Origin: Clostridia bacterium
GTDB lineage: Bacteria > Bacillota > Clostridia > Oscillospirales > CAG-272
Direction of reading: 5' to 3'
DNA: 53,212 nucleotides
Assembly: GCA_017612655.1 (NCBI GenBank)
Contig: JAGAFM010000086.1
Span: 1-53,212, forward strand
A model generated the notes under the pieces. That model had not been told where the DNA came from. It made no database searches and was given only the letters and a program-made list of their open reading frames with translations. Positions 1,299 to 41,638 of this stretch are shown in pieces. Both the position numbers and the translations under genes were made by a program. Positions within the stretch are counted from its first letter, which is position 1. Every line of letters starts with the position of its first letter.

Positions 1299-1304
1299 CG
1301 CCGG

Positions 1305-21593: not shown

Positions 21594-22520
21594 TTAATCG
21601 TTGTTTTGTTCCAGGAATCGGACGATGTCCGCGATTACCTGTTCCCTGCTGGTATCGTTCAGGATCTCATGTCTGCAGCCTGGATACAGGATCATTTCCG
21701 CATTCTTCCCGGCTTCTTTCAGCCTCTCGAAAACCGTCCTGACGCCTGCGCCGTATTCCCCCACAGGATCCTCTTCTCCCGAGAGCAGAAGGATGGGGAG
21801 AGAATCTCCCACCTGATTTGACCACTCCGGTCTGTTGCACTCACGGGTAAGACGAATCAGGTCCCCCATTGCGCTGGCGGTAAAGGAATAGGAGCAGAAC
21901 GGATCTTTCAGATACCGCTCCCGGACTTCCGGATCCTTCGTCAGCCAGGCAACGCTCCCCTCATTGGGAAACCGTTCGTTGTACTGACCGAAAGACAGGT
22001 TGTCCAGCAAAGCGGAAACGTGTTTTTCTCCCCGGAACGTTTTCACGGCTGAAACCACGCCCGAGCCGAGTCTTGCGATCGGATTGGGGCCTCCGGTGCC
22101 CATAATTATGAGCTTCGTTGCAAGCCTCGGATATTCCGTCACGGCCAGTCTGACGACGAAGGATCCCATACTGTGTCCCATCAGATAATAAGGGAGAGGA
22201 GACGGATACTCGCTCTTCATCGCATTTCCGAATGCCGCCACGTCGTCCACGAGGCGCAACCAGCCGTCTTTCGGGGCGATGTATCCAAGCTCCGACGCGT
22301 CTTTTGCCGTTCTTCCGTGGCCGAGATGGTCGTAGCCAAAGGCAAGGTACCCCTTTTCGGCCATTGTTTTGAGAAAGCCGTCGTATCTTCCGATATACTC
22401 CTTCATACCGTGAACAACATGAAAAAACGCCTTGGGAGCTCCGTCCGGAAGATAAACCGTCCCGACCAGCTCATGCTCCCCGTCTGAGGACAATACTCTT
22501 TTTTCTCTGACTTCCGCCAT
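21594..22520 (-). CDS. alpha/beta hydrolase (lysophospholipase / monoacylglycerol-lipase-like)
   Basis: HG oxyanion motif (VVHGMKEY), nucleophile elbow GHSMGS, and a late EEDPV and CRHEI (Asp and His of the triad). Confidence 0.85.
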   Translation of the reverse strand: MAEVREKRVLSSDGEHELVGTVYLPDGAPKAFFHVVHGMKEYIGRYDGFLKTMAEKGYLAFGYDHLGHGRTAKDASELGYIAPKDGWLRLVDDVAAFGNAMKSEYPSPLPYYLMGHSMGSFVVRLAVTEYPRLATKLIIMGTGGPNPIARLGSGVVSAVKTFRGEKHVSALLDNLSFGQYNERFPNEGSVAWLTKDPEVRERYLKDPFCSYSFTASAMGDLIRLTRECNRPEWSNQVGDSLPILLLSGEEDPVGEYGAGVRTVFERLKEAGKNAEMILYPGCRHEILNDTSREQVIADIVRFLEQNND

Positions 22521-25968: not shown

Positions 25969-25999
25969 GATAACAGGCAAAAGACAGTCTTACCCGTCT

Positions 26000-26860
26000 T
26001 CAATCGTTGACGCCTCTCTTTTTGCCGAAAGAAACGAGAACGCCTGCGGAAAGAATCAGAACAACGGAAACCGCGACGAGGGAAGAGTCTCCGGTTTTCG
26101 GAGGCTGTTCGGCAGAAGCCGCCGTGATCTCGACGGAGCAGAGGGGCGCGACCAGATTCTGCGTCTCGGAAGAAGCGCTGATCCAGTGGCTGCCGGCCGC
26201 CGTCAGGGACAGCGTCACCTTTCCGTCCTCGCCGGTCGTGTACGACGTCGGTTCATCGTCCACCAGAATGGTTGCGCCGGAGACAGGGGCCGCGGACATG
26301 TTGTAGTTTTCATCATAAGCGTAAGCCTGTAGAGTAAGAGAAACGGACTGTCCCGCTTCTGCCGACTGATCGCCCTCGGCAAACCAGCAGAACGTATCGC
26401 TCCATGCCGTCAGATCCGTATAGACAAAGGCAGTTACGCGATCGCCGTCCTGAATCGGATCCGCCAGACTCCACGCGGCGACATTGTTGACGTAATAACC
26501 GTATCCTCCCCCGTTTTCCGTTCCGCAGAGTTTTGTCAGGGAAAGACCGTATTCTCCGATTTCTGCGCCGTAAGCGGCTGCGGCGCCTCCCTCAAACAGC
26601 GCCTCATGTGCGGCAAACAGAGCATCGGATATCGTCAGCGAGCCGTCGGCGTCGGAATCCGTCACCTCAAAAGGCTGATTCCGGGAGACAAAGTTCCCTT
26701 CCGCATCCAGCAGCGTGACGAAGACGGTGGGAGCCTCAGGGGAAGAAGCGCCAACGGTAGGTATCTCTTCCTCGGGGGAAAGATCATCCGCAGAAGCCGC
26801 AACCAGAAGAGATCCGGTCACAAGAAGCAGGGAAAGCAAGACAACGAGTACTTTTTTCAT
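26000..26860 (-). CDS. cell-wall-anchored DUF4430 domain protein (LPXTG-like sorting signal PKTGD)
   Basis: Signal peptide MKKVLVVLLSLLLVTGSLLVAASA. C-terminal QPPKTGD followed by a hydrophobic stretch and the basic tail KKRGVND. The internal region resembles DUF4430 repeats. Confidence 0.75.
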   Translation of the reverse strand: MKKVLVVLLSLLLVTGSLLVAASADDLSPEEEIPTVGASSPEAPTVFVTLLDAEGNFVSRNQPFEVTDSDADGSLTISDALFAAHEALFEGGAAAAYGAEIGEYGLSLTKLCGTENGGGYGYYVNNVAAWSLADPIQDGDRVTAFVYTDLTAWSDTFCWFAEGDQSAEAGQSVSLTLQAYAYDENYNMSAAPVSGATILVDDEPTSYTTGEDGKVTLSLTAAGSHWISASSETQNLVAPLCSVEITAASAEQPPKTGDSSLVAVSVVLILSAGVLVSFGKKRGVND

Positions 26861-26909
26861 GACAACCTCCAGTTTAACAAAAATCTATCTCAGAGAAAAA
26901 CGGCCGGTG

Positions 26910-27614
26910 TCAGGGATTCTCTTTGCTGAACAAACCGTATTTCTTCTTGAGCCGTTCCAGCTTTTCTCCGAACGGTTTGGAGAAAAGAAGCAGAAAAAGG
27001 ACATTTGATACCGCGTAGACGGCAGTCATGCCGGCGGAAGTCAGAACAATGGATCCGTATCTGGACAGAGTAAACGATCCTTCCATCCAGAGGGTAGACC
27101 AGATATCCATCGTGAAAGAATAGAACAGTCCGGCAAGAGCGCCGAAGAGGCACAGAAGGAAGCGCGACCGTTTCAACGGGGCGGACATCACCCCTGCTAG
27201 AAATCCGATCATTCCCCAGGAGAACATCTGAAACGGCGTCCAGGGTCCCTGACCGAAATAGAAATTCGAGATCACTGCGGAAAGCGATCCGACCGCGAAT
27301 CCGGCTTCTCTCCCGAGATAGACCGCCGCGAGAATCGTAATCGCGGTTACCGGCTTGAAACCCGGAAGCCAGGCGAAGAGAAACCGTCCTGCCGCTGAAA
27401 GCGCAACCAGGGCAGCCAGGGCAGTCAGTTCTCTGGAAGTGTTTTCGCGCCGTTCAAAGGAGTAGAACAAGGGGACGCATGACAGAACCGCAACACAAAG
27501 GGAGGTAAAGGCATAGTGTTTCTCCCGGAACACCAGGGTCCCGATTGTCATCAGCACGGGAATCAGGATCAGCCACAGGACAAGGGTGACGATCGCCTTT
27601 GCGCGTTTATTCAC
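26910..27614 (-). CDS. ECF transporter substrate-specific (S) component, putatively corrinoid-specific (CbrT-like by context)
   Basis: ORF 26910..27782 trimmed to GTG 27614 (GGGAGGGTG SD), which overlaps the ATPase stop by 8 nt. A ~234-aa protein with about six TM helices and no soluble domain. Confidence 0.7.
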   Translation of the reverse strand: MNKRAKAIVTLVLWLILIPVLMTIGTLVFREKHYAFTSLCVAVLSCVPLFYSFERRENTSRELTALAALVALSAAGRFLFAWLPGFKPVTAITILAAVYLGREAGFAVGSLSAVISNFYFGQGPWTPFQMFSWGMIGFLAGVMSAPLKRSRFLLCLFGALAGLFYSFTMDIWSTLWMEGSFTLSRYGSIVLTSAGMTAVYAVSNVLFLLLFSKPFGEKLERLKKKYGLFSKENP

Positions 27615-29295
27615 GGCGCTCACCCTCCCGCTTTCCGTTTCTTCTGCAAAGCGAGACGACTTCCTCACAGGAAACCGCGTTCCGGAAATGATTTCTGGAG
27701 ATCCGATTTGCGGCCGTGGTATAGAAGGTATTCCCTGCAAAGAATTCGGCAGCGGGTGCGCTGGAAAGGATTTCTCCGTCAAAGAGGATTCCGCAGCGAT
27801 CCGCGACGGAAGCGGCGAACTCCACGTCGTGCGTGACCGTGACTAGCGTCACCCCGGTTTTCTTCCACTCGTAAAACAGATTCGCAAGAATTCGCTTCCC
27901 GTGAGCGTCTATGCCTTTGGTCGGCTCATCCAGCAGAAGGATTCTCGGCGACTGGAGAATGAGTTTGGCCAGGGCGGTCTTCTGCTGTTCCCCGCCGCTC
28001 AGATCGTAGGGATGGCGGTCCAGAAGCCGGTTCAGTCCCAGAAGATCCGCAACTTCCCGTATGCTCTCCCGGGCGGAATCGCCCGAAATCTCCATCATTC
28101 GGCACATGGACTCGAGTTCCAGCTCCACCGTCTGCTCCAGAAAAACGGAACTGATATCCTGCGGGAGTCTGGCAAGAGTATGCCGGTAGAGGGAGTTTCC
28201 GGAAAAGGACTGCAGTTTCCTGCCGAGAACGGAAACGGATCCCCGGTAAGGACGAATGAGACCGGACAATAAACGCAGAAGCGTGGTTTTTCCCGAACCG
28301 TTTCCTCCGAGGATACAGAGGTGTTCCCCGCGATGAACGGATAATGAGAGTCCGCGAAGAACGTCCGGGGATTCCTTTTCGAAGCGGAACCAGAGATCCC
28401 GCGCCTCCAGGACGGGCTCCCCGTCGAAGGGGGCAGCCTCCCGCGGCACGGTGTCGAAACGGTTCCCGTACGTCCCGGAAAGAAAGAGGCTTCCCTCCCG
28501 AACCGTCAGAGGGGCATCTCCCTCTTCACCCAGCTGATAGAAAATCCGCATGGAAGAGGGGAGACTGTCGAACATGGGGTGGTCCGAGAAACTTGAGAGT
28601 TGTTTCCCGACTTCCGCCGGACTTCCCGTACAGAGAATCCGTCCCTGTTCCATGAGAACAACCCGGTCGGAAAGCGGGAAAACCTCATCCAGACGATGCT
28701 CCGCGATCAGGATGGTCAGTCCGAGTTCCCGGTTCAGTTTTTCGAGCGTCTGCAGGAAGGCGGAGGCGGAAACCGGATTCAGCTGCGCGGTCGGTTCATC
28801 CAGGAGAAGGATGTTCGGCTCCATCGCCATGACGGAAGCCAGATTCAAAAGCTGCTTTTGCCCGCCGGACAGCTCCGCCGTCTTTTTGTGAAACCACTCC
28901 TCAATTCCGAAAAAGCCGGCGATCTCCGCAACCCTGCGGCGGATTCTCCCGCTTTCCCATCCGAGGCTCTCCAGTCCGAAAGCCAGTTCGTGCCAGACTT
29001 TGTCCGTCACAATCTGCGTCTCCGGATTCTGTCCCACAAACCCGAGCCGCGCTGCGCACCCCCTGTCGGGATAATCCCGGAGCGGTTTCCCTTCCAGAAA
29101 AATCTCTCCCTCCAGTTTTCCATAAGGGGCTATCTCACGCTTAATCAGTTGGAAAAGAGTAGTTTTTCCGCAGCCGGATTCCCCGCAGAAACAGACGAAT
29201 TCGCCGGGTTCCACCGCAAGGCTGAGCCCGTCTATCGCTTTATTCTGCTCCTGAGAATAGGAAAAACTCAGATTCTGGATCTGTAGAAGCGCCAC
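27607..29295 (-). CDS. fused tandem ECF-type ABC ATPase (EcfA-EcfA')
   Basis: Two complete nucleotide-binding domains: GESGCGKTT / LSGGQKQLLNLAS / LLLDEPTAQLN, and GGNGSGKTT / LSGGEQQKTALAK / LLLDEPTKGID. Start at GTG 29295 (GGAGAA SD). Confidence 0.9.
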   Translation of the reverse strand: MALLQIQNLSFSYSQEQNKAIDGLSLAVEPGEFVCFCGESGCGKTTLFQLIKREIAPYGKLEGEIFLEGKPLRDYPDRGCAARLGFVGQNPETQIVTDKVWHELAFGLESLGWESGRIRRRVAEIAGFFGIEEWFHKKTAELSGGQKQLLNLASVMAMEPNILLLDEPTAQLNPVSASAFLQTLEKLNRELGLTILIAEHRLDEVFPLSDRVVLMEQGRILCTGSPAEVGKQLSSFSDHPMFDSLPSSMRIFYQLGEEGDAPLTVREGSLFLSGTYGNRFDTVPREAAPFDGEPVLEARDLWFRFEKESPDVLRGLSLSVHRGEHLCILGGNGSGKTTLLRLLSGLIRPYRGSVSVLGRKLQSFSGNSLYRHTLARLPQDISSVFLEQTVELELESMCRMMEISGDSARESIREVADLLGLNRLLDRHPYDLSGGEQQKTALAKLILQSPRILLLDEPTKGIDAHGKRILANLFYEWKKTGVTLVTVTHDVEFAASVADRCGILFDGEILSSAPAAEFFAGNTFYTTAANRISRNHFRNAVSCEEVVSLCRRNGKREGERRE

Positions 29296-30149
29296 AGCAG
29301 ATTCTCCTTTCCCTCCAGAAGAACCGGAAGAAGACAAAGAACGGAAAACAGCAGAATTGCCGCCGAAGCCAGGAGATCCGGCTTCGAGAGAACGATACTC
29401 GGGAAGAACTGGTAGGAAAGCCTTCCCGTAATCATGGCACAAAGGACACCCGCATCCAGCAAAAGGAGAAAAGCCAGCAAAACAGCATCTCTTCTGCGGA
29501 ACCGAAACAGGGAAAACCGGGTCCGTCCCGGGAGTCCGTACCCTCTGGCACGCATGAAGGTCCCCGTTTCGACCGCATTTTCCAGGATCCAGGTTACGGT
29601 TGCCGAAAAAACCCGGACGGTCCCCCTCCAGCGACTGGTCCAGACATCCTCTGTGTACAGTCCCAGAGATTTCTGCGCTTCGCGGATCGACTGAGCCTTC
29701 TGGCGGATCCGGGGGAGAAAACGCAAAGCCGTGGAAAGAACCAGCGCCAGCTTCGGCGACAGTCTGCCGAACAGATCAAGAAGTTTGTCTTCCGTCATGA
29801 TCTCTTTCAGACAGCGAAACCAGAAGAAAACCGAAACCAGCATCACTCCCAGATTGATTCCGTACAGAAGAGATTCCAGGGTAAGGGGGTCTCCGTTCAG
29901 GAAAATCAGGGGCGTCGCCCCGTTGTGGGAAACCAGAGGATTTACCAGTGTAACAAGGAGGACAAAGCAACAATAGGGAGCAACCGCCCGAAAGGAGCGG
30001 ACCGCGGGACAAATCCGGAAGCAGAACAGAACCCCGCCGATCAGGGAGATTCCCGTCAGAACCGGATTGCCGGAAAACATCGCGAAAAACAGAACGGAAA
30101 AGAAGAAAAAGGCAGAAACCAGAGGATGGCAGTCTGACAGTCTTGGCAT
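29268..30149 (-). CDS. ECF transporter T component (CbiQ/EcfT family), dedicated module
   Basis: ORF 29268..30386 trimmed to ATG 30149 (GGGAGGG SD 8 nt upstream). Polytopic protein. Its upstream 79 codons lie in the riboswitch and terminator. Confidence 0.85.
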   Translation of the reverse strand: MPRLSDCHPLVSAFFFFSVLFFAMFSGNPVLTGISLIGGVLFCFRICPAVRSFRAVAPYCCFVLLVTLVNPLVSHNGATPLIFLNGDPLTLESLLYGINLGVMLVSVFFWFRCLKEIMTEDKLLDLFGRLSPKLALVLSTALRFLPRIRQKAQSIREAQKSLGLYTEDVWTSRWRGTVRVFSATVTWILENAVETGTFMRARGYGLPGRTRFSLFRFRRRDAVLLAFLLLLDAGVLCAMITGRLSYQFFPSIVLSKPDLLASAAILLFSVLCLLPVLLEGKENLLWRFYRSRI

Positions 30150-30201
30150 TCGGGTTCCCTCCCTTTCCGCGTTCCGCATTTTTCGCCCGCCGACACTCGT
30201 C

Positions 30202-30259
30202 AAAAAGAAAAAAGTGAAGCCGGAAGATCGCGCATCGCGGCGATCCGCTGGATTCACTC
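30202..30259 (-). terminator. riboswitch expression-platform terminator
   Basis: The minus strand reads GAGTGAATCCAGCGGATCGCCGCGATGCGCGATCTTCCGGCTTCAC followed by TTTTTTCTTTTT. It is a long imperfect hairpin with an inner GATCGC/GCGATC stem and an outer AGTGAA/TTCACT stem. Confidence 0.6.
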
Positions 30260-30261
30260 TT

Positions 30262-30470
30262 CGCACCAAAGAGGCAGAATTCCACAGAAGATACGGCAGG
30301 GGTCCTGACTTATGATGGGGCAGAAAGCCCGAAAGCAACAGATCCCTCCTGCAAAAATAGCAAAGAGACTGCGCTCCTCCCGTCAAATACAGTAATGGCG
30401 GTTGCTCCGGATTCGAACCGGATTACCTTTTCATCTACTCAGTTAACAACTTTTCAAAACCGTATCTTCC
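30262..30470 (-). ncRNA. cobalamin (B12) riboswitch
   Basis: The minus strand reads AAAAGGTAATCCGGTTCGAATCCGGAGCAACCGCCATTACTGT ... CATAAGTCAGGACCCCTGCCG. This matches the conserved core (AGGGAA / GGTG.AA.TCC / GC.G..CCGC.ACTGT) and the B12 box (AGTCAGGA.ACCTGCC), followed by a terminator and the ECF operon. Confidence 0.8.
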
Positions 30471-30496
30471 CGACATTATTCTTTTTTCCGGGGAAC

Positions 30497-30525
30497 AGTA
30501 TAGCACGGCGGGTTCAATCTGTCAA
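30497..30525 (-). promoter_or_regulatory. promoter of the riboswitch-ECF operon (TTGACA-17-TATACT)
   Basis: The minus strand has TTGACA (30525-30520), a 17-nt spacer GATTGAACCCGCCGTGC, and TATACT (30502-30497). Confidence 0.55.
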
Positions 30526-30630: not shown

Positions 30631-30659
30631 TTGCTTTTTTCCCTGTCATTTGATAGAAT
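30631..30659 (+). promoter_or_regulatory. promoter of the DUF4838 operon (TTGCTT-17-TAGAAT, extended -10 TG)
   Basis: TTGCTT at 30631-30636, a 17-nt spacer ending in TGA, and TAGAAT at 30654-30659. Divergent from the ECF promoter about 105 nt away. Confidence 0.5.
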
Positions 30660-30823: not shown

Positions 30824-32614
30824 ATGAGAGCAGTAACAATCGGCGGACACGATCTTTCCGCGTTTCGGATTGTCCTTCCGAAAGAACCGAAAGGCGCGGA
30901 AAAAACCGGTGCAGCCTTTCTGCAGAAAGCCCTGCTTCAGTCCAGCGGGCTTGTCCTCCCCGTCGTCTCCGAGCCGGGGGAGCATAACATCTTCATCGGT
31001 GGAGAGAGACATTCCGAACGAATCCGCTGGGACGGATTCTGCATACTGACGGACGATCGCAATCTGTATCTGTTCGGCAACGAGGAAAGGGGCACGCTCT
31101 ATGCCTGCTACGAATTTGCCGAATCCAGACTCGGATACCGTTATTTCGCTGTCGGAGTCACCCGCATCTCCCGCGAGGGAGAGGTTCAGGTTCCGTCCGG
31201 ACTGGACGAAATCCACAATCCAGGATTCGAGGTTCGCCGGGTATCCTGGGCGGATCTCGCCTATGATCCGGAATTCGCCTCCCATGCGCGCGTCAATTCC
31301 CATCTGGAAGCTGACATGGAGGCATACGGGGGGACGGTCTACGACTTCATCCCCTGCCATACTTTCTACCAGTATTGTCCCGCGGACGAGTATTTCCGGG
31401 AGCATCCCGAGTACTACTCCGAGCGGGGCGGAAAACGAATCCCGTGCCGGGACGCCGGAGGACCCGGTCAGCTCTGTCTGACCAATCCGGATGTCCTCCG
31501 AATCGTCACAAACCGGATTCTGGAAGAGCTCAGGGAACATCCCGAGCGGAAACTGATCGACTTTTCGCAATGCGACTGCGGCAATTACTGTCAGTGCGAA
31601 AAGTGCGCGGCAGTAGATGCGGAAGAGGAGAGTCCCGCCGGAAGCATCGTCCGGTTCGTCAATGCGGTGGCGGAATCGGTGGAGCGCGAGTTCCCGGATG
31701 TTCTCGTTCAGACTTTTGCCTACGAATATTCCGTGAAGCCGCCGAAGTTCACGAAAGCCAGGAAGAACGTCCTGATCCGCTACTGCACCTACGACGCCTG
31801 TTTCCGGCACGCGCTGGACGACACGGACTGCGAGATCAATTCCGCAACCGTTCGGCCGGAAATGCTCGGCTGGAAGGAGCGCTGCAGTCAGCTCTCCCTG
31901 TGGGACTATCTGTCCAACTACAACTGCTATCTGGCGCCGTTTCCGAATCTTTACTCTCTCTGGAAAAACGCTTCGTTCTACGCGGAATGCGGGGTCCGTC
32001 ATCTGTACGAATCGATGGACACTACCCATTCCACGACCGGGCCTTACGGGGATCTGAAGACCTATCTGGCCGCAAAACTCTGCTGGAACCCAACCGTCAG
32101 CAAAGATGATTACCTGATCTGGATCGATGAATTCCTGGAGGCCTTCTACGGACCGGGATGGGAAGACATTCGCTCGTATCTGAAGCTGGAGCTTGAGACC
32201 ACGGAAGGACGCTGCTTTACCTGCAAGGAGCCGATCGACATCTGCTTCCTGTATTACAAAACCATTCCGGAGGTACCCAATCTGAAGCGCTTCCTTCGGA
32301 GGAGCTACACCGCCAAGCCGTATCAGCCGGTATATCCCAACCACGCGCTGTCCCGCCTTTGCGAGCGTCTGGACGAGGCAAAGGGCTGTTTTGACCGGGC
32401 CTATGAAAAGGCGGAAACCGATTTGCAGCGATACCGGATCAAACGGAGCAGGATCGCTCTGACCTATCTGGACCTGTTCTGCACCGAACACGACGAAACT
32501 GCCATGACCCCGACGGAGCGAAACGCCTACGAAGCGGAAGTGGAACAGTTCTACCGGGACAAGAAAGCTTACAACTACTACTACAACATTCACACCGAAT
32601 TCATGAGAAACTGA
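30824..32614 (+). CDS. DUF4838-type putative glycoside hydrolase, paralog 1 (no signal peptide)
   Basis: ORF 30650..32614 trimmed to ATG 30824 (GGAGGAGG SD). Blocks RGTLYACYEFAESRLGYRYF, GPGQLCLTNPDVLRIVT, CDCGNYCQCEKCAAVDAEEESPAGSIVRFVNAV, KARKNVLIRYCTYDACFRH, WDYLSNYNCYLAPFPNL and IDEFLEAFYGPGW. Confidence 0.85.
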   Translation: MRAVTIGGHDLSAFRIVLPKEPKGAEKTGAAFLQKALLQSSGLVLPVVSEPGEHNIFIGGERHSERIRWDGFCILTDDRNLYLFGNEERGTLYACYEFAESRLGYRYFAVGVTRISREGEVQVPSGLDEIHNPGFEVRRVSWADLAYDPEFASHARVNSHLEADMEAYGGTVYDFIPCHTFYQYCPADEYFREHPEYYSERGGKRIPCRDAGGPGQLCLTNPDVLRIVTNRILEELREHPERKLIDFSQCDCGNYCQCEKCAAVDAEEESPAGSIVRFVNAVAESVEREFPDVLVQTFAYEYSVKPPKFTKARKNVLIRYCTYDACFRHALDDTDCEINSATVRPEMLGWKERCSQLSLWDYLSNYNCYLAPFPNLYSLWKNASFYAECGVRHLYESMDTTHSTTGPYGDLKTYLAAKLCWNPTVSKDDYLIWIDEFLEAFYGPGWEDIRSYLKLELETTEGRCFTCKEPIDICFLYYKTIPEVPNLKRFLRRSYTAKPYQPVYPNHALSRLCERLDEAKGCFDRAYEKAETDLQRYRIKRSRIALTYLDLFCTEHDETAMTPTERNAYEAEVEQFYRDKKAYNYYYNIHTEFMRN

Positions 32615-32626
32615 GGTGCCCGAATC

Positions 32627-34429
32627 GTGAGAACACTGTCGATCTGCGGAATCCCGGTCCGGTTCTTCACCCTCGTGATCCCGTCCTTCCCCGATCCGGC
32701 CGTTCAGACCGCGGCGCGTTTTCTTCAGGATTCGATCCGCAGATCCTGCGGGATCGAACTCCCCGTCCGAAACGAAACCGCCGAGCATGGAATCTACCTA
32801 AACTCGAGCGGTCCCTGCGATCAGATCAGATGGGACGGATTCCGGATTCGCACCGACGGCGGAAACCTCTATCTGGACGGGAATCTTCCGCGCGGAACGC
32901 TGTACGCTTCCTTCGATTTTGCCGAGAGGTTTCTCGGCTACCGCCACTTTGCGCATGAAACCGAAGTAATCCGGACGGACGGCGAGGCGGACGTTCCGCC
33001 GTTTTTCGACCGGATCGACAACCCATCTTTTCAGGAACGCCGCTCCAACTGGTACTGGTTCGAAAAAGACCCTGCCCTTCACGCGCACTGCAGAATCAAC
33101 ACCGATCCGAAGTTCGGCTGGGAGAAAACCCCGGCCGAGTGGGGCGGATCTCTGGCTGCGCCTTCCTCGTGCCATGAACTCTGGCGCTTCTGCCCGGGCA
33201 GCCTGTACTTTGAAACGCATCCAGAGTACTTCTCTTTGGTGGACGGTGAGCGGATCCCCTGCAACGACAACTACGGTCCCGGCCAGCTGTGCCTGTCCAA
33301 TCCGGACGTAATCCGGATCGTTACGGAGAATGTACTGAAGGAGCTGAGGAATCACCCGGATCTTCCGCTGGTCGAACTGTCCCAGTCAGACAACGGGAAC
33401 TATTGCCGGTGTCCCTCCTGCGCGGCGATCGACCGGGAAGAGGAAAGCCATTCCGGCACGCTGATCCGGTTTCTGAACGCGGTCGGGGAGTCGGTGGAAC
33501 GGGAATTCCCCTCCGTTCTGCTCCGCACGTTTGCCTACGGATATTCCACAAAGCCTCCCAGACATACAAAAGCCAGAAGGAACATCCTGATCCGGTTCTG
33601 CACGTTTGAAGCCTGCTTCCGGCACGGGATCTCGGACCCGTCCTGTCCGACGAACCGGGAAAGAACGTTTCCGGAAATCACCGCCTGGGGAGAAGCCTGT
33701 TCCCAGATGTCAATCTGGGACTACGCAGCGAACTGGAACTGCTACATCGCTCCCTTCCCGAATCTGATTTCTCTGAGAGAAAACGCCCGTCTCTATCAAT
33801 CCTGTCATGCAACATCCGTTTTCGTGGAAGACTGCAGCGGCAGGTATCAGGGAGGAATGCACCCCGATCTGAAGGCCTATCTGATCGGGAAGCTCCTCTG
33901 GAACGCCTCCATGAGCGAAGAAGAGTACCGTACGCACATTGACGAGTTCCTGGAGGCCTTCTACGGTCCCGGCTGGAAATCCATCCGGCGGGTCATCGAA
34001 ATCGAGCATGAAACGACCGCCGAACGGTGCTTCAGCTGCTCCGAAAACCTGGATTACTGCTTCGTTCCTTTCGAAACCGACCCTCCCGTTCCGGGGCTCG
34101 TCGAATTCCGCAGACGAAACTACAGGGTTTTTCCTTTTCAGCCATTTCTCCCCGACCACGCCCTGACCGAGTTCGTCCGTCACATGGACGAACTGACGCG
34201 GCTGTTCGGAGAAGCGATGGAACAGGCGGAAACGGATCAGCAGAGGGATCATATCCAGAGAAGCCGGTTTTCCCTTTCCTACGCGGAACTGTTCGGGAGC
34301 GGACATGTCAAGCGCGAAATGACAAAAGAGCAGCGGAAGGAACACATTCTCGCGGTCGAGCAGTTCTGCCGGGATAAGGACGCCTACGGAATGGCTTACA
34401 ACATTCAAACCGAAGTCAACGGCCATTGA
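32627..34429 (+). CDS. DUF4838-type putative glycoside hydrolase, paralog 2
   Basis: GTG start 8 nt after a GAGGTG SD, 12 nt after paralog 1. Same conserved blocks (RGTLYASFDFAERFLGYRHF, GPGQLCLSNPDVIRIVT, NYCRCPSCAAIDREEESHSGTLIRFLNAV, WDYAANWNCYIAPFPNL). Confidence 0.88.
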   Translation: MRTLSICGIPVRFFTLVIPSFPDPAVQTAARFLQDSIRRSCGIELPVRNETAEHGIYLNSSGPCDQIRWDGFRIRTDGGNLYLDGNLPRGTLYASFDFAERFLGYRHFAHETEVIRTDGEADVPPFFDRIDNPSFQERRSNWYWFEKDPALHAHCRINTDPKFGWEKTPAEWGGSLAAPSSCHELWRFCPGSLYFETHPEYFSLVDGERIPCNDNYGPGQLCLSNPDVIRIVTENVLKELRNHPDLPLVELSQSDNGNYCRCPSCAAIDREEESHSGTLIRFLNAVGESVEREFPSVLLRTFAYGYSTKPPRHTKARRNILIRFCTFEACFRHGISDPSCPTNRERTFPEITAWGEACSQMSIWDYAANWNCYIAPFPNLISLRENARLYQSCHATSVFVEDCSGRYQGGMHPDLKAYLIGKLLWNASMSEEEYRTHIDEFLEAFYGPGWKSIRRVIEIEHETTAERCFSCSENLDYCFVPFETDPPVPGLVEFRRRNYRVFPFQPFLPDHALTEFVRHMDELTRLFGEAMEQAETDQQRDHIQRSRFSLSYAELFGSGHVKREMTKEQRKEHILAVEQFCRDKDAYGMAYNIQTEVNGH

Positions 34430-34451
34430 GAAGGAAAAGGGAGACACAACC

Positions 34452-36263
34452 ATGAGAAAGCTGACAATCTGCGGAGTCCCCCTGGAATCCTTCTCGGTCG
34501 TTCTGCCCCCTAACCCGCCGGCCGCCGTACAAACCGCCGCGGACTTTCTCCTGTCCTCTTTTGAAAAAAGCTGCGGGGTCAGACTTCCCGTTACGGAAAC
34601 CGCGGAGGAACACGGCATTTTTGTGGGAACAGGCGTCCCCTGCGATGCCGTTAAATGGGACGGATTCCGGGTCCGCACAGACGAACGCAGCCTCTTCCTG
34701 GACGGCAATCATCCGAGAGGCACTCTCTACGCCGCCTACGATTTTGCGGAGCGTTTTCTCGGATACCGGATGTTCGCTCCGGATACCGAAGTGATCGCAT
34801 CCGACGGAACGGCGGACGTCCCCCCGGGCTACGACCGGGTCGACAACCCGTCTTTCCGCGAACGGATCAGCGACTGGGCTGCCTATCAGAAGGATGAGGC
34901 TTTTGCCTCCCACAGCCGACTGGTAACTCTCTCCGGAAAGTTTGCGGAAGCTTACGGAGGGACCGACGCTCCGTCCTGGGGATGCCACACTCTTGCTTCC
35001 CTGTGTCCCGCGGAACTGTATTATCAGGACCACCCGGAGTATTATGCGCTCCGGGACGGGGAGCGGATCCCCTGCAGGGACGGCTCCGGACCCGGGCAGC
35101 TGTGTCTCACCAATCCCGACGTACTCAGAATCGTTACGAACAATGTCATAAAGATTCTGAGAGCAGATCCGAGCCGGGAACTGGTCGAGGTCTCACAGGC
35201 AGACAATCAGTCTTTCTGCCAATGCGAAGCCTGCGCTGCAATCGACCGCGAGGAGGAGAGCCACTCCGGAACCCTGATCCGCTTTGTCAACGCGATTGCG
35301 GAAGCCGTCGAGCCGGAATTTCCGAAAACGGTGATCCGAACGTTTGCCTATCAGTACACGAGCAAGCCCCCGAAACACACAAAAGCCAGGAAAAACGTTC
35401 TGATCCGGTACTGCACCATTCACGCGTGCTTCCGCCACGCGATCGACGACCCGGACTGCGGCACTAACCGGGAGCAGGTATTCGGGGAAATGAAGCAGTG
35501 GGGCTCCATGTGCGACCAGATGTCCGTCTGGGACTATGTGATAAACTGGTGGTGTTACCCCGCACCCTACCCGAACCTGATTTCTCTCCGGGAGAACGCC
35601 CGGGTATTCGACGAATGCAAAGCGGTGAGCGTCTTTGAAGAAGACGCCTCGGACGTCAATCAGGGCGGGATGCATCCGGAGCTGAAAGCCTACCTGATCG
35701 GCAAGGTTCTCTGGAATGCCCACATGAGTCAGGAAGAGTACGACCGCCACATCGACGAGTTTCTCGCCGCCTATTACGGCGACGGATGGAAATCGATCCG
35801 CAGAATCATCGAACTGGAGCATGCCTCAACCGCATGCAGGTGCTTCAGAGATCTTGAGCCGATCGATTTCAATTACATCACCTACAAAGTCGAACCGGAA
35901 ATCCCCTGGATCCGGGGCAACTGGCGCCGAAACTACCGGCCCCTTCCCTATCAGCCGGCCGTTCCAGGGCACCCCCTGGCAGAATTCCTGAGTCATTCCG
36001 AGGAGATCCGTTCCCTGTTTCGGGTGGCGACGGACGCGGCGAAAACGGAACTCCAGCGGGAGCATATCCGCAGGAGCAAGCTGTCCTTCGACTACGTGGA
36101 TCTGTTCTGCAGCCCCCACGACCGGTCCTCCATGACGGAAGAAGAGGCCGCTGCCTACGAAGAAGCCGCCGACACGTTTCTCTGCGATTTTGACAGATAC
36201 GGAATGGCGTACAATCTGGATGTCTGGTGGGAAAGAAAAGGGAGAGAAGAGGATCTGTCCTGA
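34452..36263 (+). CDS. DUF4838-type putative glycoside hydrolase, paralog 3
   Basis: ATG after an AAGGGAGA SD. MRKLTICGVPL N-terminus nearly identical to paralog 4. Blocks RGTLYAAYDFAERFLGYRMF, GPGQLCLTNPDVLRIVT, SFCQCEACAAIDREEESHSGTLIRFVNAI and WDYVINWWCYPAPYPNL. Confidence 0.88.
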   Translation: MRKLTICGVPLESFSVVLPPNPPAAVQTAADFLLSSFEKSCGVRLPVTETAEEHGIFVGTGVPCDAVKWDGFRVRTDERSLFLDGNHPRGTLYAAYDFAERFLGYRMFAPDTEVIASDGTADVPPGYDRVDNPSFRERISDWAAYQKDEAFASHSRLVTLSGKFAEAYGGTDAPSWGCHTLASLCPAELYYQDHPEYYALRDGERIPCRDGSGPGQLCLTNPDVLRIVTNNVIKILRADPSRELVEVSQADNQSFCQCEACAAIDREEESHSGTLIRFVNAIAEAVEPEFPKTVIRTFAYQYTSKPPKHTKARKNVLIRYCTIHACFRHAIDDPDCGTNREQVFGEMKQWGSMCDQMSVWDYVINWWCYPAPYPNLISLRENARVFDECKAVSVFEEDASDVNQGGMHPELKAYLIGKVLWNAHMSQEEYDRHIDEFLAAYYGDGWKSIRRIIELEHASTACRCFRDLEPIDFNYITYKVEPEIPWIRGNWRRNYRPLPYQPAVPGHPLAEFLSHSEEIRSLFRVATDAAKTELQREHIRRSKLSFDYVDLFCSPHDRSSMTEEEAAAYEEAADTFLCDFDRYGMAYNLDVWWERKGREEDLS

Positions 36264-36364
36264 CCGCCGCGGAAGGAACGCCCCGGGCTATACCGGGCCG
36301 GAACTCCTACCGCCTCACGTTTTCTTTTCCCGTCTCCTCTATCCGTATCGAATAGGAGGCCAAT

Positions 36365-38149
36365 ATGAGAAAACTGACAATCTGCGAAACCCCTCTCGAA
36401 CAGTTTACGCTGGTTCTTCCCCGTGAGGTTCCCCCCGCCGTCCGGACTGCTGCCGACTTCCTGCTGAAATCGTTCGAGGAAAGCTGCGGAGTCATACTTC
36501 CGGTTTCGGAATCCGCGCCGGAACACGGGATCTTTCTGGGAACAGGATCCCCCTGCGAAGCCGTAAGATGGGACGGATTCCGGATCCGTACGGATGACCG
36601 TCACCTCTACCTGGACGGAAATATCCCGAGGGGCACTCTCTACGCTGCCTACGATTTTGCGGAGCGTTATCTGGGATACCGGTCGTTTACGCCGGACACG
36701 GAAATCATTTCCTCGGAAGGAAGCGCAAGTCTCCCGTCCGGGACCGACCGCATCGACAATCCCTCCTTTCAGGAAAGGCTGAGCGACTGGTACGCATTCA
36801 GCGATCCGAAACTCGCATCCCGGTTCCGGCTGTTCAATCTTCATGAGATTCCCGAAGAATACGGCGGTTCCGGAGCGCCTTCGTGGTCCTGTCACAGCAT
36901 GGCGAGTCTTTGCCCGTCTGACCTCTATTATGAAGAACACCCCGAGTATTACGCTCTGGTGGACGGACAGCGAATTCCCTGCAGAGACGGCGGTGGGCCG
37001 GGCCAGCTTTGCCTGACCAATCCGGATGTCCTGCGCATTGTCACGGAAAACGTTCTCCGGCAGCTTCGGAAGAATCCTCATCAGCGTTGCGTCGAAGTCT
37101 CCCACTGCGACAACCAGAACTATTGCCGCTGCGAACGCTGTGCCGCCGTTGACGAGGAGGAAGGCAGTCACTCCGGAACCATGATCCGGTTCGTCAACGC
37201 GGTAGCAGAGGCCGTGGAACAAGAGTTCCCGGGGGTTCTCGTCCGAACCTTTGCCTATGAGTACACGATCAAGCCCCCTAAGATCACAAAGGCGAGGAAA
37301 AACGTCCTGATCCGCTACTGCACCTACGACACCTGTTTCCGGCACGGGATCGACGATCCGAACTGCAAAGTCAATCGGGAAACCACCTACCCGGAAATCC
37401 TGGGGTGGAAGGAAAAAAGCTCCCAGCTGTGCATCTGGGACTACGTCACAAACTGGGACTGCTTCCTGGCGCCGTTTCCGAATCTGGTCTCCCTGCGGGA
37501 AAACGCCCGGTTTTTCGCGGACAGCAACGTAACCAGCGTTTTCGAGGAAGACCAGTCTTCCATCCGGCAGGGCGGCATGCACCCGGAGCTGAAATCCTAT
37601 CTGATCGGAAAACTCCTGTGGAACGCCCGGATGAGCGAAGAGGAATACCGCCGTCACATCGACGAATTTCTGGAAGCCTACTACGGACCGGGATGGAAAT
37701 CGGTTCGGAGAGTGATTGAGATCGAGCACGAAACCACCGGGGGCCGCTGCTTCGGCTGCAAAGAGGAACTGGATATCTGCTTTGTTCATTACGTGACTTA
37801 TCCCCCGATTCCCGGAATCAAGCAGTTCCTTCGGCAGAACTACCGCGCCTGCGCGTTTCAGCCGATTCTTCCGAATCATGCCCTGACCGAGTTCTGCACC
37901 CGGATCGAAGAATGCCGCAGGCTTTTCGGGGAGGCCCGCGAGGCGGCCCAGACCGACCTTCAGAGGGAACATATCAGACGGAGCGAATTCTCCCTCGACT
38001 ATCCGGAGCTTTTCTGTACGCCGCACAACCGTTCCGAAATGAGCCAAGAAGAGCAGGACCGCTATCTGGAGGCGGTCCAGAAGTTTTACGAAGACAAAAA
38101 AGAATACGGAATGTATTTCAATCTGTCTTCGTCCTTTACAAAACAGTAG
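36365..38149 (+). CDS. DUF4838-type putative glycoside hydrolase, paralog 4
   Basis: ATG after an AGGAGG SD. Blocks RGTLYAAYDFAERYLGYRSF, GPGQLCLTNPDVLRIVT, NYCRCERCAAVDEEEGSHSGTMIRFVNAV and WDYVTNWDCFLAPFPNL. Confidence 0.88.
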   Translation: MRKLTICETPLEQFTLVLPREVPPAVRTAADFLLKSFEESCGVILPVSESAPEHGIFLGTGSPCEAVRWDGFRIRTDDRHLYLDGNIPRGTLYAAYDFAERYLGYRSFTPDTEIISSEGSASLPSGTDRIDNPSFQERLSDWYAFSDPKLASRFRLFNLHEIPEEYGGSGAPSWSCHSMASLCPSDLYYEEHPEYYALVDGQRIPCRDGGGPGQLCLTNPDVLRIVTENVLRQLRKNPHQRCVEVSHCDNQNYCRCERCAAVDEEEGSHSGTMIRFVNAVAEAVEQEFPGVLVRTFAYEYTIKPPKITKARKNVLIRYCTYDTCFRHGIDDPNCKVNRETTYPEILGWKEKSSQLCIWDYVTNWDCFLAPFPNLVSLRENARFFADSNVTSVFEEDQSSIRQGGMHPELKSYLIGKLLWNARMSEEEYRRHIDEFLEAYYGPGWKSVRRVIEIEHETTGGRCFGCKEELDICFVHYVTYPPIPGIKQFLRQNYRACAFQPILPNHALTEFCTRIEECRRLFGEAREAAQTDLQREHIRRSEFSLDYPELFCTPHNRSEMSQEEQDRYLEAVQKFYEDKKEYGMYFNLSSSFTKQ

Positions 38150-38230
38150 ATTTTCGTATTCCCTTTTCTTTCCGGGACACGGATCGAAAAACACATATCT
38201 CAGAGAATAATTGTGATCGGAGGATCGTCT

Positions 38231-40096
38231 ATGGCACATTTTCTTATTACCGCCAACTGCTGCGCCTGGAAATCCGCGGAGTGGACAGCCCGTACGGAAA
38301 CGCTTCTTTCGTACGGAGTCCGGAACCTGAATTGCTCCCTTGGAAAATCGGATCTCGGAAGCAGCGCCGCCGAAGAGCTCGCTTCTCTTCTTTCCGAGAA
38401 GCGGAAGCAGGGGAAGGCACTGTCCGCGGTTTCTATCTCCTACACCGATCCCGAACTCCCTTCCGAGGAACAGTTCGGACAGATCGCAGAGGCGGCAAAA
38501 CAGCTTGGGGCGGCAAAAATCCGGGTTTTCGTCCCGTTCGAAGGTCTCGGATCCGGATCGGCGGAAACCGCTTCCTGTCTGAGCAAACTTGCAGATATCG
38601 CTCGTGATAGCGAACTGACCCTCTGCCTGGATAATCAACCCGGGGGAGCTGCGGCATCTGCCGCTGAAATCAAAGCATTTCTCGATGGCATTCCGGATCT
38701 TCGTCTCATCTTTGACCCGGCCGCTTTCGCTTCCGGCGGGAATGATCCCCTCTCTTCCTACCTTGAACTGGAGGATCGGATCGACGGGCTTCTCCTTACG
38801 GAATCTGAAACGGAAACCAGAATTCCCGAAATGATTTCTCTCCTCGCCAAAACGGACGGGGTTCGACTGCTGATTCTTCCGAAAGGCTGTGCGAATCTTT
38901 CCGAGGCGGCGAAAACGGCAAAGCGGTGCGCGGAAGACGCGCAGCCGATCCGTCTCGGCATTATCGGACTAGGCAACATGGGAAGAGGCCACTCCGACAA
39001 CTTCCTTTCCGGCCATATCAAGGAGATGCGGATCACCGCGGTTGCGGATATCAATCCGGACAAACTGTCCTACGCCACCGAAAAACTCCCCTGGGCCAAG
39101 CAGTACGCAACGGCGAGCGAACTCATGGACAGCGGCGAGGTCGATGCGGTCATTGTCTGCACTCCGCACTACTTCCACCCCCCGCTTGTCATTGAGGCAC
39201 TTTCCAAGGGTCTGCACGTCATCTCCGAAAAACCGGCAGGCGTCTACACCAAACAGGTGCGGGAGATGAACGAGGCGGCTGCAAAATCCGACAAAGTCTT
39301 CGCCATGATGTTCAACCAGAGAACCAACCATGTCTACCGGAAAGTCAAGGAAATCGTGGATTCCAAAAAGTACGGCGAGATTCGGAGAGTCAACTGGATC
39401 ATCACGGAATGGTACCGTCCTCAGTTTTATTACAATTCCGGCGGATGGCGCGCCACCTGGGCGGGCGAAGGCGGAGGGGTTCTGCTAAACCAGTGCCCGC
39501 ATCAGCTCGATCTCTGGCAGTGGATTTGCGGCATGCCCTGCAAAATCCGGGCTTTCCTCCACGAGGGAAAATGGCATGACATCGAAGTGGAAGACGATGC
39601 GACGATCTATGCTGAATATCCGAACGGCGCAACCGGCGTATTCGTCACCTCGACCGGCGATTATCCCGGCTCCAACCGTCTGGAAATCACGCTGGACGGT
39701 GCGAGAATTCTCTGCGAGCACGATCAGATCCGTCTGACGGAACTGGACGAACCGCTCAGTTCCTTTACCGTAACCTGCAAATCCGTCTTCGGAAAAGTCG
39801 GATATCACGACGTTCCCGTGGAGACGGACGGCAAGAACGAACAGCATGTAGGAGTAATGAATGCGTTCTCCGCGCATATTCTGTACGGTGAGCCGCTGAT
39901 CGCTGCGGGTACCGAGGGGATCAATGGTCTGACCATTTCCAACGCGGCGCATCTTTCCAGCTGGACGAACCAGACCGTAACCCTTCCTCTGGATGAGGAT
40001 CTTTTCTACGAAGAGCTGAAAAAGCGAATAGCAACATCCCGGGCGAAGGGACAGGTGCAGGAAGTCGTCCAGGACGACATGAGCAGCACATATTGA
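38231..40096 (+). CDS. fusion protein: xylose-isomerase-like TIM-barrel (sugar phosphate isomerase/epimerase-like) domain + Gfo/Idh/MocA NAD(P)-dependent oxidoreductase
   Basis: ORF 38213..40096 trimmed to ATG 38231 (GGAGGA SD). The N-terminal ~235 aa carry LGAAKIRVF, LTLCLDNQPG and LRLIFDPAAF blocks typical of AP_endonuc_2 TIM barrels. From IRLGIIGLGNMGRGH onward it is a Rossmann fold with EKP (VISEKPAG) and a Gfo/Idh/MocA C-terminal domain. Confidence 0.8.
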   Translation: MAHFLITANCCAWKSAEWTARTETLLSYGVRNLNCSLGKSDLGSSAAEELASLLSEKRKQGKALSAVSISYTDPELPSEEQFGQIAEAAKQLGAAKIRVFVPFEGLGSGSAETASCLSKLADIARDSELTLCLDNQPGGAAASAAEIKAFLDGIPDLRLIFDPAAFASGGNDPLSSYLELEDRIDGLLLTESETETRIPEMISLLAKTDGVRLLILPKGCANLSEAAKTAKRCAEDAQPIRLGIIGLGNMGRGHSDNFLSGHIKEMRITAVADINPDKLSYATEKLPWAKQYATASELMDSGEVDAVIVCTPHYFHPPLVIEALSKGLHVISEKPAGVYTKQVREMNEAAAKSDKVFAMMFNQRTNHVYRKVKEIVDSKKYGEIRRVNWIITEWYRPQFYYNSGGWRATWAGEGGGVLLNQCPHQLDLWQWICGMPCKIRAFLHEGKWHDIEVEDDATIYAEYPNGATGVFVTSTGDYPGSNRLEITLDGARILCEHDQIRLTELDEPLSSFTVTCKSVFGKVGYHDVPVETDGKNEQHVGVMNAFSAHILYGEPLIAAGTEGINGLTISNAAHLSSWTNQTVTLPLDEDLFYEELKKRIATSRAKGQVQEVVQDDMSSTY

Positions 40097-40942: not shown

Positions 40943-41088
40943 AAAAAGCGGAAAAAGAGAAGGAGTTAAAGCCCGGATAATTCCGGGATGTACGAGGCCG
41001 TACATCGGTCGACTGCCTGCGAAGTCTGTTTCAAGGACCGGTGCCTGACCCGCCACAGGCGCTGAGCGTTCTCTTTTCCGCTTTTTTT
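40943..41088. repeat. 19-bp inverted repeat (one bulge) enclosing a 107-nt hairpin-rich core; candidate small RNA or MITE-like element
   Basis: AAAAAGCGGAAAAAGAGAA (40943-40961) is the reverse complement of TTCTCTTTTCCGCTTTTT (41069-41086), with one extra A. Inner hairpins are CCCGGA-TAAT-TCCGGG, ATGTACG-AGGC-CGTACAT and GCCTG...CAGGC. It lies between two convergent gene ends. Confidence 0.6.
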
Positions 41089-41104: not shown

Positions 41105-41638
41105 TTACCGGGAAGCCATTGCCTCTCTTACCCGTCTGACCACATAGGAGCGGGTGTTCCACCATCCCTCATGGTCGTAATAGAAACGGAGGTAGGGTGT
41201 TCCCTGTGCATGACAGTTTTCCCTCAGTTTCTTCGACGCACTGGACTGGGGAAGGATTTCCGCGACAAGCGCCGTTTTCCCGGCGGAGCGCAGGAAGAAC
41301 ACAACACGTTTCCCGCCCTTCTGAAATTCTTTGGTGCATTCGAACGAAGGAAACTCCTCGCGGAAGATCTTTTCAAAATAATCCGGATAGGACAGGCCGG
41401 AATTAAACTGATTCGGCTCGTCCGGCATCCTTTCGCCCCAGGAATCGCCGCAAGGGGAATCCGAGACGGATGAGGAAAAAACCGTTTTGTCTTCCTCGGG
41501 TTTCCCGGCGGTCTGAGCGCCAGCGGAAGCATTCGAATCCTGCTTGCCTACCCCGTCCATAAGTCCCTGAAGGAAACTCTCGACGGCCTTTTTCCCTTCG
41601 GATGCATTCCCTCCCAGAAGTTTTGAAAGAAATCCCAT
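41105..41638 (-). CDS. hypothetical protein
   Basis: 177-aa ORF. Amphipathic N-terminus MGFLSKLLGG, a low-complexity linker and a ~100-aa C-terminal globular region (YPDYFEKIFREEFPSFE...LRFYYDHEGWW). No family recognised. Confidence 0.6.
   Translation of the reverse strand: MGFLSKLLGGNASEGKKAVESFLQGLMDGVGKQDSNASAGAQTAGKPEEDKTVFSSSVSDSPCGDSWGERMPDEPNQFNSGLSYPDYFEKIFREEFPSFECTKEFQKGGKRVVFFLRSAGKTALVAEILPQSSASKKLRENCHAQGTPYLRFYYDHEGWWNTRSYVVRRVREAMASR

Follow-up and report, generated by a model that had tools for sequence, protein, structure and literature searches.

Four consecutive genes for related proteins of 594-603 aa raise the question of what these proteins do, and whether the copies all do the same thing. 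The genes lie on contig JAGAFM010000086.1 (assembly GCA_017612655.1) of a Clostridia bacterium (GTDB: Bacillota; Clostridia; Oscillospirales; CAG-272). Positions 1 to 53,212 of its forward strand, a stretch of 53,212 nt referred to here as the window, were analyzed. All four products belong to the Pfam family DUF4838. We consider it moderately probable that they are cytoplasmic, retaining glycosidases of the hexosaminidase type, similar to glycoside hydrolase (GH) family GH163, with specificities that have diverged from copy to copy.

Four diverged DUF4838 paralogs without signal peptides

The genes were located on the + strand at 30824-32614 (gene 1, 596 aa), 32627-34429 (gene 2, 600 aa), 34452-36263 (gene 3, 603 aa) and 36365-38149 (gene 4, 594 aa), and they are separated by gaps of 12, 22 and 101 nt. 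Gene 2 starts with GTG and the others with ATG. A Shine-Dalgarno sequence (GGAGGAGG, GAGGTG, AAGGGAGA and AGGAGG for genes 1 to 4) stands 5-9 nt ahead of every start codon. An earlier note on this DNA had given the same consecutive order, coordinates, lengths and gaps, and a Shine-Dalgarno sequence for each gene. In a Pfam search all four proteins matched PF16126 (DUF4838) with 248-283 bits (E-values of 8.7e-81, 2e-73, 2.1e-80 and 3.6e-84, respectively), far above the gathering cutoff of 26.6 bits, and the alignments spanned positions 3-324 of the 325 in the profile. The family that the earlier note had named was therefore the right one, and every motif block that it listed was found, invariant in the four proteins. 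Searching all open reading frames (ORFs) of the window with the hidden Markov model gave no fifth copy. The GH20b N-terminal domain matched weakly and below the Pfam threshold in two copies, gene 2 included. NCBIfam, PADLOC and PHROGs yielded zero matches for the four proteins, which leaves a reading of the array as a defense system unsupported.

Pairwise identities of the four paralogs were 48-63%, in agreement with the claim that they are clearly diverged, and synonymous sites are saturated at this level. Genes 2-4 are mutually closest, while gene 1 is the outlier (48-52% identity to the other three) and clustered in the tree with copies from other arrays, apart from genes 2-4. With such identities the four genes are no duplicate made by the assembly, an explanation that is also ruled out by the recurrence of arrays in other genomes. 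Decaying pseudogenes were likewise ruled out, since the copies have diverged with their invariant residues intact and arrays recur elsewhere.

Neither the annotated nor the upstream starts of the four genes gave a signal peptide. Only four and three open codons precede genes 2 and 4, the 43 open codons ahead of gene 3 contain no start codon, and the alternative TTG 58 codons upstream of gene 1 would add a charged rather than a hydrophobic segment. In each protein residue 1 is already part of the alignment to the family profile. No usable upstream start thus provides a hydrophobic N-terminus, as expected for the cytoplasmic proteins proposed before, and any activity would therefore be intracellular. 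A Firmicute host had been proposed as well, and the best match to protein 4 (P0001, 94% identical) indeed comes from a metagenome-assembled genome (MAG) named 'Clostridia bacterium' (GCA_017401265.1).

Two statements about the family itself have to be corrected, namely that DUF4838 has no assigned activity and that it occurs mainly in secreted Bacteroidota proteins. DUF4838 is the catalytic domain of the CAZy families GH163 and GH185 (PMC10570127). The GH163 founder, BT1035 of Bacteroides thetaiotaomicron, is a surface endo-β-N-acetylglucosaminidase that cuts the β1,2 linkage between N-acetylglucosamine (GlcNAc) and mannose in complex N-glycans, and the GH185 founder, Sp_0475 of S. pneumoniae, is a cytoplasmic 6-sulfo-β-N-acetylglucosaminidase lacking a signal peptide (PMC10570127). 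Sp_0475 is a retaining, thiazoline-inhibited enzyme whose catalysis depends on Q174, H227, D309 and Y436 (PMC10570127). The same paper had already noted a cluster of 252 protein sequences without signal peptides, described DUF4838 as highly diverse and predicted further activities. A DUF4838 profile built from the window proteins and their relatives retrieved 16,842 cluster representatives at E <= 1e-3, of which 5,886 also reached E <= 1e-30. By a crude N-terminal test, about 46 of the best 147 diverse representatives looked cytoplasmic and 86 secreted, so cytoplasmic members are common. The clusters of 10 cytoplasmic representatives carried names of Clostridia MAGs only.

Predicted fold, conserved residues and cysteine sites

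The structure of protein 4, the product of gene 4, was modeled with AlphaFold2 from a 120-sequence alignment of close homologs, and residue numbers throughout refer to this protein. The model (predicted local distance difference test, pLDDT, 95.4; predicted template modeling score, pTM, 0.93) comprises an N-terminal α/β domain, an eight-stranded barrel and a C-terminal helical bundle. A Foldseek comparison with the PDB placed GH67 and GH115 α-glucuronidases first (E ~1e-13, template modeling (TM) score ~0.5, 10-13% identity), followed by GH138, GH84 and GH20, with E-values ranging from 1e-13 to 1e-9. The best matches were to glycosidase families, which bears out the TIM-barrel glycosidase fold that the earlier note had expected. 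Single-sequence, profile and Foldseek searches of the PDB returned no solved DUF4838 structure, and the sequence and profile searches gave marginal matches only, to the N-terminal domains of GH67 and GH84.

Conservation was analyzed in 148 diverse representatives chosen independently of the motifs discussed here. C216, D249, C254, C256, C259, N278 and Y298 were kept in all 148, R138, W348 and Y360 in 147 and H177 in 146. The four window proteins keep all tabulated conserved residues, from R138 through Y360 and including both cysteine groups. C216, D249, C254, C256 and C259 were also invariant in the 120 close homologs and in 100 proteins from GTDB loci. Judged by order, spacing and conservation only, H177, D249 and Y360 would be the obvious equivalents of H227, D309 and Y436 in Sp_0475: the order is the same, and the spacings are 72 and 111 residues as against 82 and 127. 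D249, after β4, is thus a candidate acid/base, with H177 beside it and Y360 after β7 as the other candidate catalytic residues. For Q174 of Sp_0475 the best guess is position 136, a weak assignment; the four copies have E, Q, R and Q there, and 78 of 116 members of the close clade have E.

Taken together with the characterized members, these features suggest that the four genes arose long ago by tandem duplication and that each encodes a cytoplasmic three-domain glycoside hydrolase, in which a (β/α)8 barrel stands between an N-terminal GH20b/GH67N-like domain and a C-terminal helical bundle. By analogy with those members, the enzymes would hydrolyze β-linked N-acetylhexosaminides with retention and by substrate assistance.

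A candidate Cys4 site of the GH163/GH42 type is encoded by the gene 4 codons for C216, D249 and C254-x-C256-x2-C259 (37010-37141, + strand). The model places C216 four residues ahead of helix 220-236 (α3) and C254, C256 and C259 after strand 242-244 (β4), where the window proteins read S-H-C-D-N-Q-N-Y-C. The four window proteins and 116 of 116 clade members all have C216, and the conservation of the cysteines in wider homologs, on which the note's proposal of a metal site depended, was confirmed for C216, C254, C256 and C259 in 148 of 148 representatives. The site had been considered unusual for a glycosidase, but published work reports the same cluster in GH163, in GH42, where it holds zinc, and in some GH20 enzymes (PMC11776370, PMC8573354). 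In GH163 it was described in 2024 as one cysteine upstream of α3 and a C-x-C-x-x-C downstream of β4 (PMC11776370, section 12). Zinc is bound by this type of cluster in five of 11 solved GH42 structures, some GH20 enzymes carry a three-cysteine version, and GH185 has the C-x-C-x-x-C without the α3 cysteine (PMC11776370). In the GH42 enzyme Gal42 the ligands are C113, C153, C155 and C158, and the C-x-C-x2-C begins five residues past the acid/base E148 (PMC8573354), just as it begins five residues past D249 in the window proteins. Since the cluster is already known from GH163 and GH42, the Cys4 site is not new. By their residues, the window proteins carry the four-cysteine form of GH163 and GH42, which GH185 lacks, and by analogy it is most probably a structural zinc site. 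Such a site would tie the loop before α3 (C216) to the loop bearing D249 (C254, C256 and C259).

A candidate second metal site is encoded further downstream by the gene 4 codons for C319, at the end of β6, C324, H327 and C334 (37319-37366, + strand). The earlier note was right about conserved residues in a second Cys/His cluster, but their spacing is C-x4-C-x2-H-x6-C and not C...C-x3-H. Among the 148 representatives, C319 occurred in 137, C324 in 122, H327 in 127 and C334 in 71, while the full CCHC pattern was found in 116 of 116 close relatives. The pattern was absent from 120 Bacteroidota proteins of BT1035 architecture, which keep C319 alone. C324 and H327 were present together in 207 sequences and both absent in 56, and C324 never occurred without H327, a distribution which indicates that gain and loss of the two residues are coupled throughout the family. 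The four residues look like a second metal-binding loop present in part of the family only, of which no description was found in the searchable literature.

Recurrence of the arrays and their genomic context

The close clade of the window proteins comprises about 3,000 clusters at 90% identity, largely under two 50%-identity representatives. Its members derive almost wholly from MAGs of uncultured Clostridia, Ruminococcaceae and Oscillospiraceae, and they are typically arrayed. Besides the four tandem copies on this contig, we found five in JGI sample 3300029305 (L001), eight in GCA_054265275.1 (L086), nine in GCA_052832245.1 (L003/L083) and at least four in a GTDB MAG (L004). A second array of GCA_054265275.1 (L091) has five intact copies and one broken into pieces of 98 and 465 aa, which brings this genome to at least 13 copies in the two arrays. 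At the syntenic site in GCA_054280495.1 (L092) there are only two tandem copies. The number of copies at one locus thus changes over time, decay of copies included. Downstream of the window array, synteny is shared with L084, from the MAG with the 94% match to protein 4. Pairs of copies from different genomes were 75-84% identical, as against about 55% for copies inside one array; the duplications are thus old and the copies have been retained. What is new here is the recurrence of arrays of 2-9 copies in this clade without signal peptides, of which no description was found in the literature searched, together with the co-varying second Cys/His motif; the rest is known.

Variation among the window paralogs is unevenly distributed. 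Identity drops to 33% in loop 143-176 and to 36% in loop 396-406, both of which would lie on the catalytic face of the barrel, and reaches 83-92% around C216, β6 and the catalytic and cysteine motifs. Variable loops on a conserved core fit diverged substrate binding. With the invariant residues kept and the loops differing most, the array is best read as a set of enzymes that would differ in substrate or linkage preference and act on oligosaccharides already in the cell.

Outside the close clade, homologs from Kiritimatiellia, Lentisphaeria, Armatimonadota, Planctomycetota and Bacteroidales were almost all single-copy and mostly longer, many of them with an N-terminal extension ahead of the domain. 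A tblastn search of plasmids detected DUF4838 members from Parabacteroides, Bacteroides, Burkholderia and Gemmatirosa only. The Cys4 cluster is kept in the Parabacteroides and Bacteroides members and absent in the far-diverged Burkholderia and Gemmatirosa ones. On the Burkholderia pyrrocinia plasmid NZ_CP150851.1 (L093), a distant DUF4838 protein (CDS 1300-3672, 25% identity) is encoded among GT1, GT2 and GT4 glycosyltransferase genes. The Cys4 cluster is missing from this protein, the positions of H177 and Y360 are substituted, and it may represent a non-hydrolytic or differently acting branch of DUF4838.

The window has the gene content of an ordinary chromosome, including RuvAB, UvrC, IMPDH, Dxs, alanine racemase and a GH16 protein. 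Nowhere in its 53 kb was a sugar transporter found. The neighbors across nine loci comprised an esterase, housekeeping and ribosomal protein genes, and regulators, and arrays in other genomes likewise stand among housekeeping genes, often beside the esterase. Such a context yields no clue to the substrate, and this is where any specific claim about function is weakest. The esterase gene (BD-FAE/Abhydrolase_3) is divergent and directly upstream of the arrays with five, nine and eight copies in L001, L083 and L086, and could encode a deacetylase partner. No such esterase stands beside the array in the window, which has only a Hydrolase_4 gene at 21594-22520 (- strand).

The array is plausibly transcribed as a single unit. 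The earlier note had placed it behind one promoter at 30631-30659 (+ strand), and there a candidate sigma-70 promoter can be read directly from the sequence, with TTGCTT, a 17-nt spacer and TGaTAGAAT. The boxes, with a TG before the -10, are visible as described; the site is nevertheless weak and fell below the threshold of the consensus scan, because its -35 box matches only three of six bases. Both the promoter and the single operon are thus putative. A leader of about 164 nt separates the candidate promoter from gene 1, and it matched no Rfam family. In the 101 nt that separate gene 3 from gene 4 (36264-36364, + strand), a short GC hairpin, CCCGG-gctata-CCGGG, lies about 25 nt ahead of a T-rich stretch. 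This is no canonical terminator, nor did the terminator scan flag it; an internal regulatory or processing site is possible.

Downstream of the array, gene 5 (38231-40096, + strand, 621 aa) has the Pfam domains AP_endonuc_2 and GFO_IDH_MocA, that is, a truncated xylose-isomerase-like TIM barrel fused to a Gfo/Idh/MocA oxidoreductase. A Shine-Dalgarno sequence (GGAGGAAG) precedes its ATG at 38231 but not the GTG at 38213; in the close relative L084 this 627-codon ORF is likewise intact. Weak NCBIfam matches were to inositol 2-dehydrogenase, glycoside 3-dehydrogenase and levoglucosan dehydrogenase. Gene 5 may be co-transcribed with the array, and its domain pair is reminiscent of oxidative, eliminative systems of glycoside cleavage. 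Genes with GFO and AP_endonuc_2 domains were also present near a single-copy DUF4838 homolog in L089. An acyl-ACP-thioesterase-like gene comes after gene 5.

Two RNA elements were identified in the window. On the strand opposite to the array, the shared intergenic region contains a cobalamin riboswitch (RF00174, 54 bits) at 30278-30479 (- strand). This element was rejected as a regulator of the array and assigned instead to the divergent ECF-type transporter operon at 24289-30386 (- strand), which has a promoter-like site at 30525..30497 (- strand). This operon encodes a CbiQ-like T component, a double ATP-binding cassette (ABC) ATPase, an energy-coupling factor (ECF) S component, a CarboxypepD_reg-like protein and a DUF4430 protein, and by its gene content it probably represents an uptake system for B12 or corrinoids. 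A full-length RT-5 RNA (RF03026, 80 bits) was found at 40958-41064 (- strand), directly 3' of a 177-aa ORF at 41105-41638 (- strand). This ORF has no Pfam match, matches RTasCOG2852 (DRT) in PADLOC (E 5e-53) and is kept at the same position in L084. DRT stands for defense-associated reverse-transcriptase systems; Pfam scans of the larger window ORFs, the RT-5 neighborhood included, gave no match to a reverse transcriptase.

Alternative readings and comparison with known systems

Several points weigh against hexosaminidase-type enzymes. The catalytic equivalences to Sp_0475 and BT1035 are drawn by order, spacing and conservation, the best-guess equivalent of Q174, position 136, is variable, and no sugar transporter, kinase or deacetylase adjoins the arrays, here or in other genomes. 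Moreover, the nearest solved folds, GH67 and GH115, are inverting α-glucuronidases, so the fold alone does not settle the chemistry. The proteins might thus be glycosidases of the same fold with another chemistry or sugar specificity, for example α-glucuronidase-like or galacturonidase-like (GH67, GH115, GH138), phosphorylases or lyases, to which a substrate-assisted mechanism on N-acetylhexosamine (HexNAc) would not apply. In its favor, GH67, GH115 and then GH138 outrank GH84 and GH20 in Foldseek, the putative oxazoline-stabilizing residue at position 136 is not conserved, no HexNAc catabolic genes are nearby, and the authors of GH185 stress the diversity of DUF4838 and predict further activities (PMC10570127). 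However, both characterized DUF4838 enzymes cut β-GlcNAc linkages (PMC10570127), the functional His, Asp and Tyr of Sp_0475 match family-wide invariants in the window proteins, and GH67 and GH115 reach TM-scores of no more than about 0.5, with 10-13% identity. We hold another chemistry to be unlikely.

The conserved cysteines could also bind iron, in a rubredoxin-like Fe(Cys)4 or an Fe-S cluster, and make the enzymes redox-sensitive or redox-regulated, with C319, C324, H327 and C334 as a further redox or regulatory module. Seven cysteines and one histidine are invariant across 116 clade members, C324 and H327 co-vary strictly, the proteins are cytoplasmic and the host is presumed to be a strict anaerobe. 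GH20 enzymes with the three-cysteine site are pale pink in solution, a color resistant to ethylenediaminetetraacetic acid (EDTA) (PMC11776370), and chloride inhibits Sp_0475 only when reductant is absent (PMC10570127). On the other side, all solved examples of this cluster type (GH42 and TrdeGH20) show zinc in their crystals (PMC8573354, PMC11776370), Sp_0475 is colorless (PMC11776370) and its activity is unchanged by EDTA or a metal screen (PMC10570127). The C-x-C-x2-C with a distal cysteine has the zinc spacing of GH42 and corresponds to no classical Fe-S motif, and we regard the iron reading as improbable. We give the lowest probability to a hetero-oligomeric complex of the paralogs, or to some copies being non-catalytic partners. 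Related GH families are often oligomeric, such as the trimers of GH42 and the dimers of GH115, the intergenic gaps of 12-22 nt suggest coupled expression, and arrays of 2-9 copies recur across genomes. Against this, every copy keeps D249, H177, Y360, the cysteine sites and all family invariants, and none therefore looks like a dead subunit; two to six copies at one syntenic site fit poorly with a fixed stoichiometry, and single-copy relatives are common.

Only two activities are known for the very large DUF4838 family, and the finding serves chiefly to correct an outdated label of unknown function. Read as GH163-like hexosaminidases, the arrays offer 4-9 natural variants of one scaffold, with core and metal sites intact and differences mainly in the candidate substrate loops. 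They would make a handy panel for new hexosaminidase-type specificities, for instance in glycan analysis or remodeling, the stated motivation of the work on GH185 (PMC10570127), and for probing the roles of the Cys4 site and the extra Cys3-His site. A bolder and rather doubtful proposal is that the arrays form an intracellular 'glycan-trimming battery' with new DUF4838 activities, or a set of enzymes under metal or redox control whose substrate is an endogenous glycoconjugate instead of food glycans. It starts from a narrow clade of uncultured gut or rumen Clostridia, in which a cytoplasmic GH163-like enzyme would have multiplied repeatedly into operonic arrays of 2-9 long-diverged copies (at least 13 copies in one genome), away from transporters or polysaccharide utilization loci and with a clade-enriched second Cys3-His site in each copy.

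With GH20, GH84, GH67 and GH115 the window proteins share the arrangement of an N-terminal α/β domain, a TIM barrel and a helical domain in Foldseek, and weak Pfam and PDB-profile matches reached the N-terminal domains of GH20, GH67 and GH84. Identity to the four families, however, is only 9-14%, the GH20 motif H-x-G-G-D-E is absent from the four proteins, and none of them gave a Pfam match to a catalytic domain of GH20, GH84 or GH67. The likeness to GH42 (Bca-β-gal, PDB 3TTS; Gal42) consists of one cysteine on the β3/α3 loop, about 38-40 residues upstream of a C-x-C-x2-C on the β4/α4 loop. GH42 belongs to another family and clan, employs a Glu/Glu pair on galactosides and does not carry the cluster universally, so that by sequence the resemblance is limited to the metal site.

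Closer ties exist to the two DUF4838 families. GH185 shares with the window proteins the domain, the lack of a signal peptide, a Firmicute host, the C-x-C-x2-C after β4 and, as putative equivalents, conserved His, Asp and Tyr residues in the order of Sp_0475. In contrast, C216, the cysteine before α3, is present in all window proteins and reported absent in GH185 (PMC11776370). Sp_0475 is also longer, its sulfate-binding R633 has no mappable counterpart in the window proteins, and its gene sits in a sugar locus of the phosphotransferase system (PTS) and GH1 type.

GH163 differs from the window proteins in size and setting. Its proteins have about 780 residues, as against about 595, with a signal peptide and an F5/8 type C domain that are missing here. 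C324, H327 and C334 are extra residues of the window proteins, absent in the Bacteroidota proteins, and the window genes form a tandem array surrounded by housekeeping genes instead of belonging to a polysaccharide utilization locus. The catalytic domain with its four-cysteine cluster is the same, and protein 4 matched the Bacteroidota protein P0303, which has the BT1035 architecture of signal peptide, DUF4838 and F5/8 type C domain, over about 520 residues with 33% identity (E 5e-84). On account of the four-cysteine cluster and this match, the window proteins appear nearer to GH163 than to GH185.

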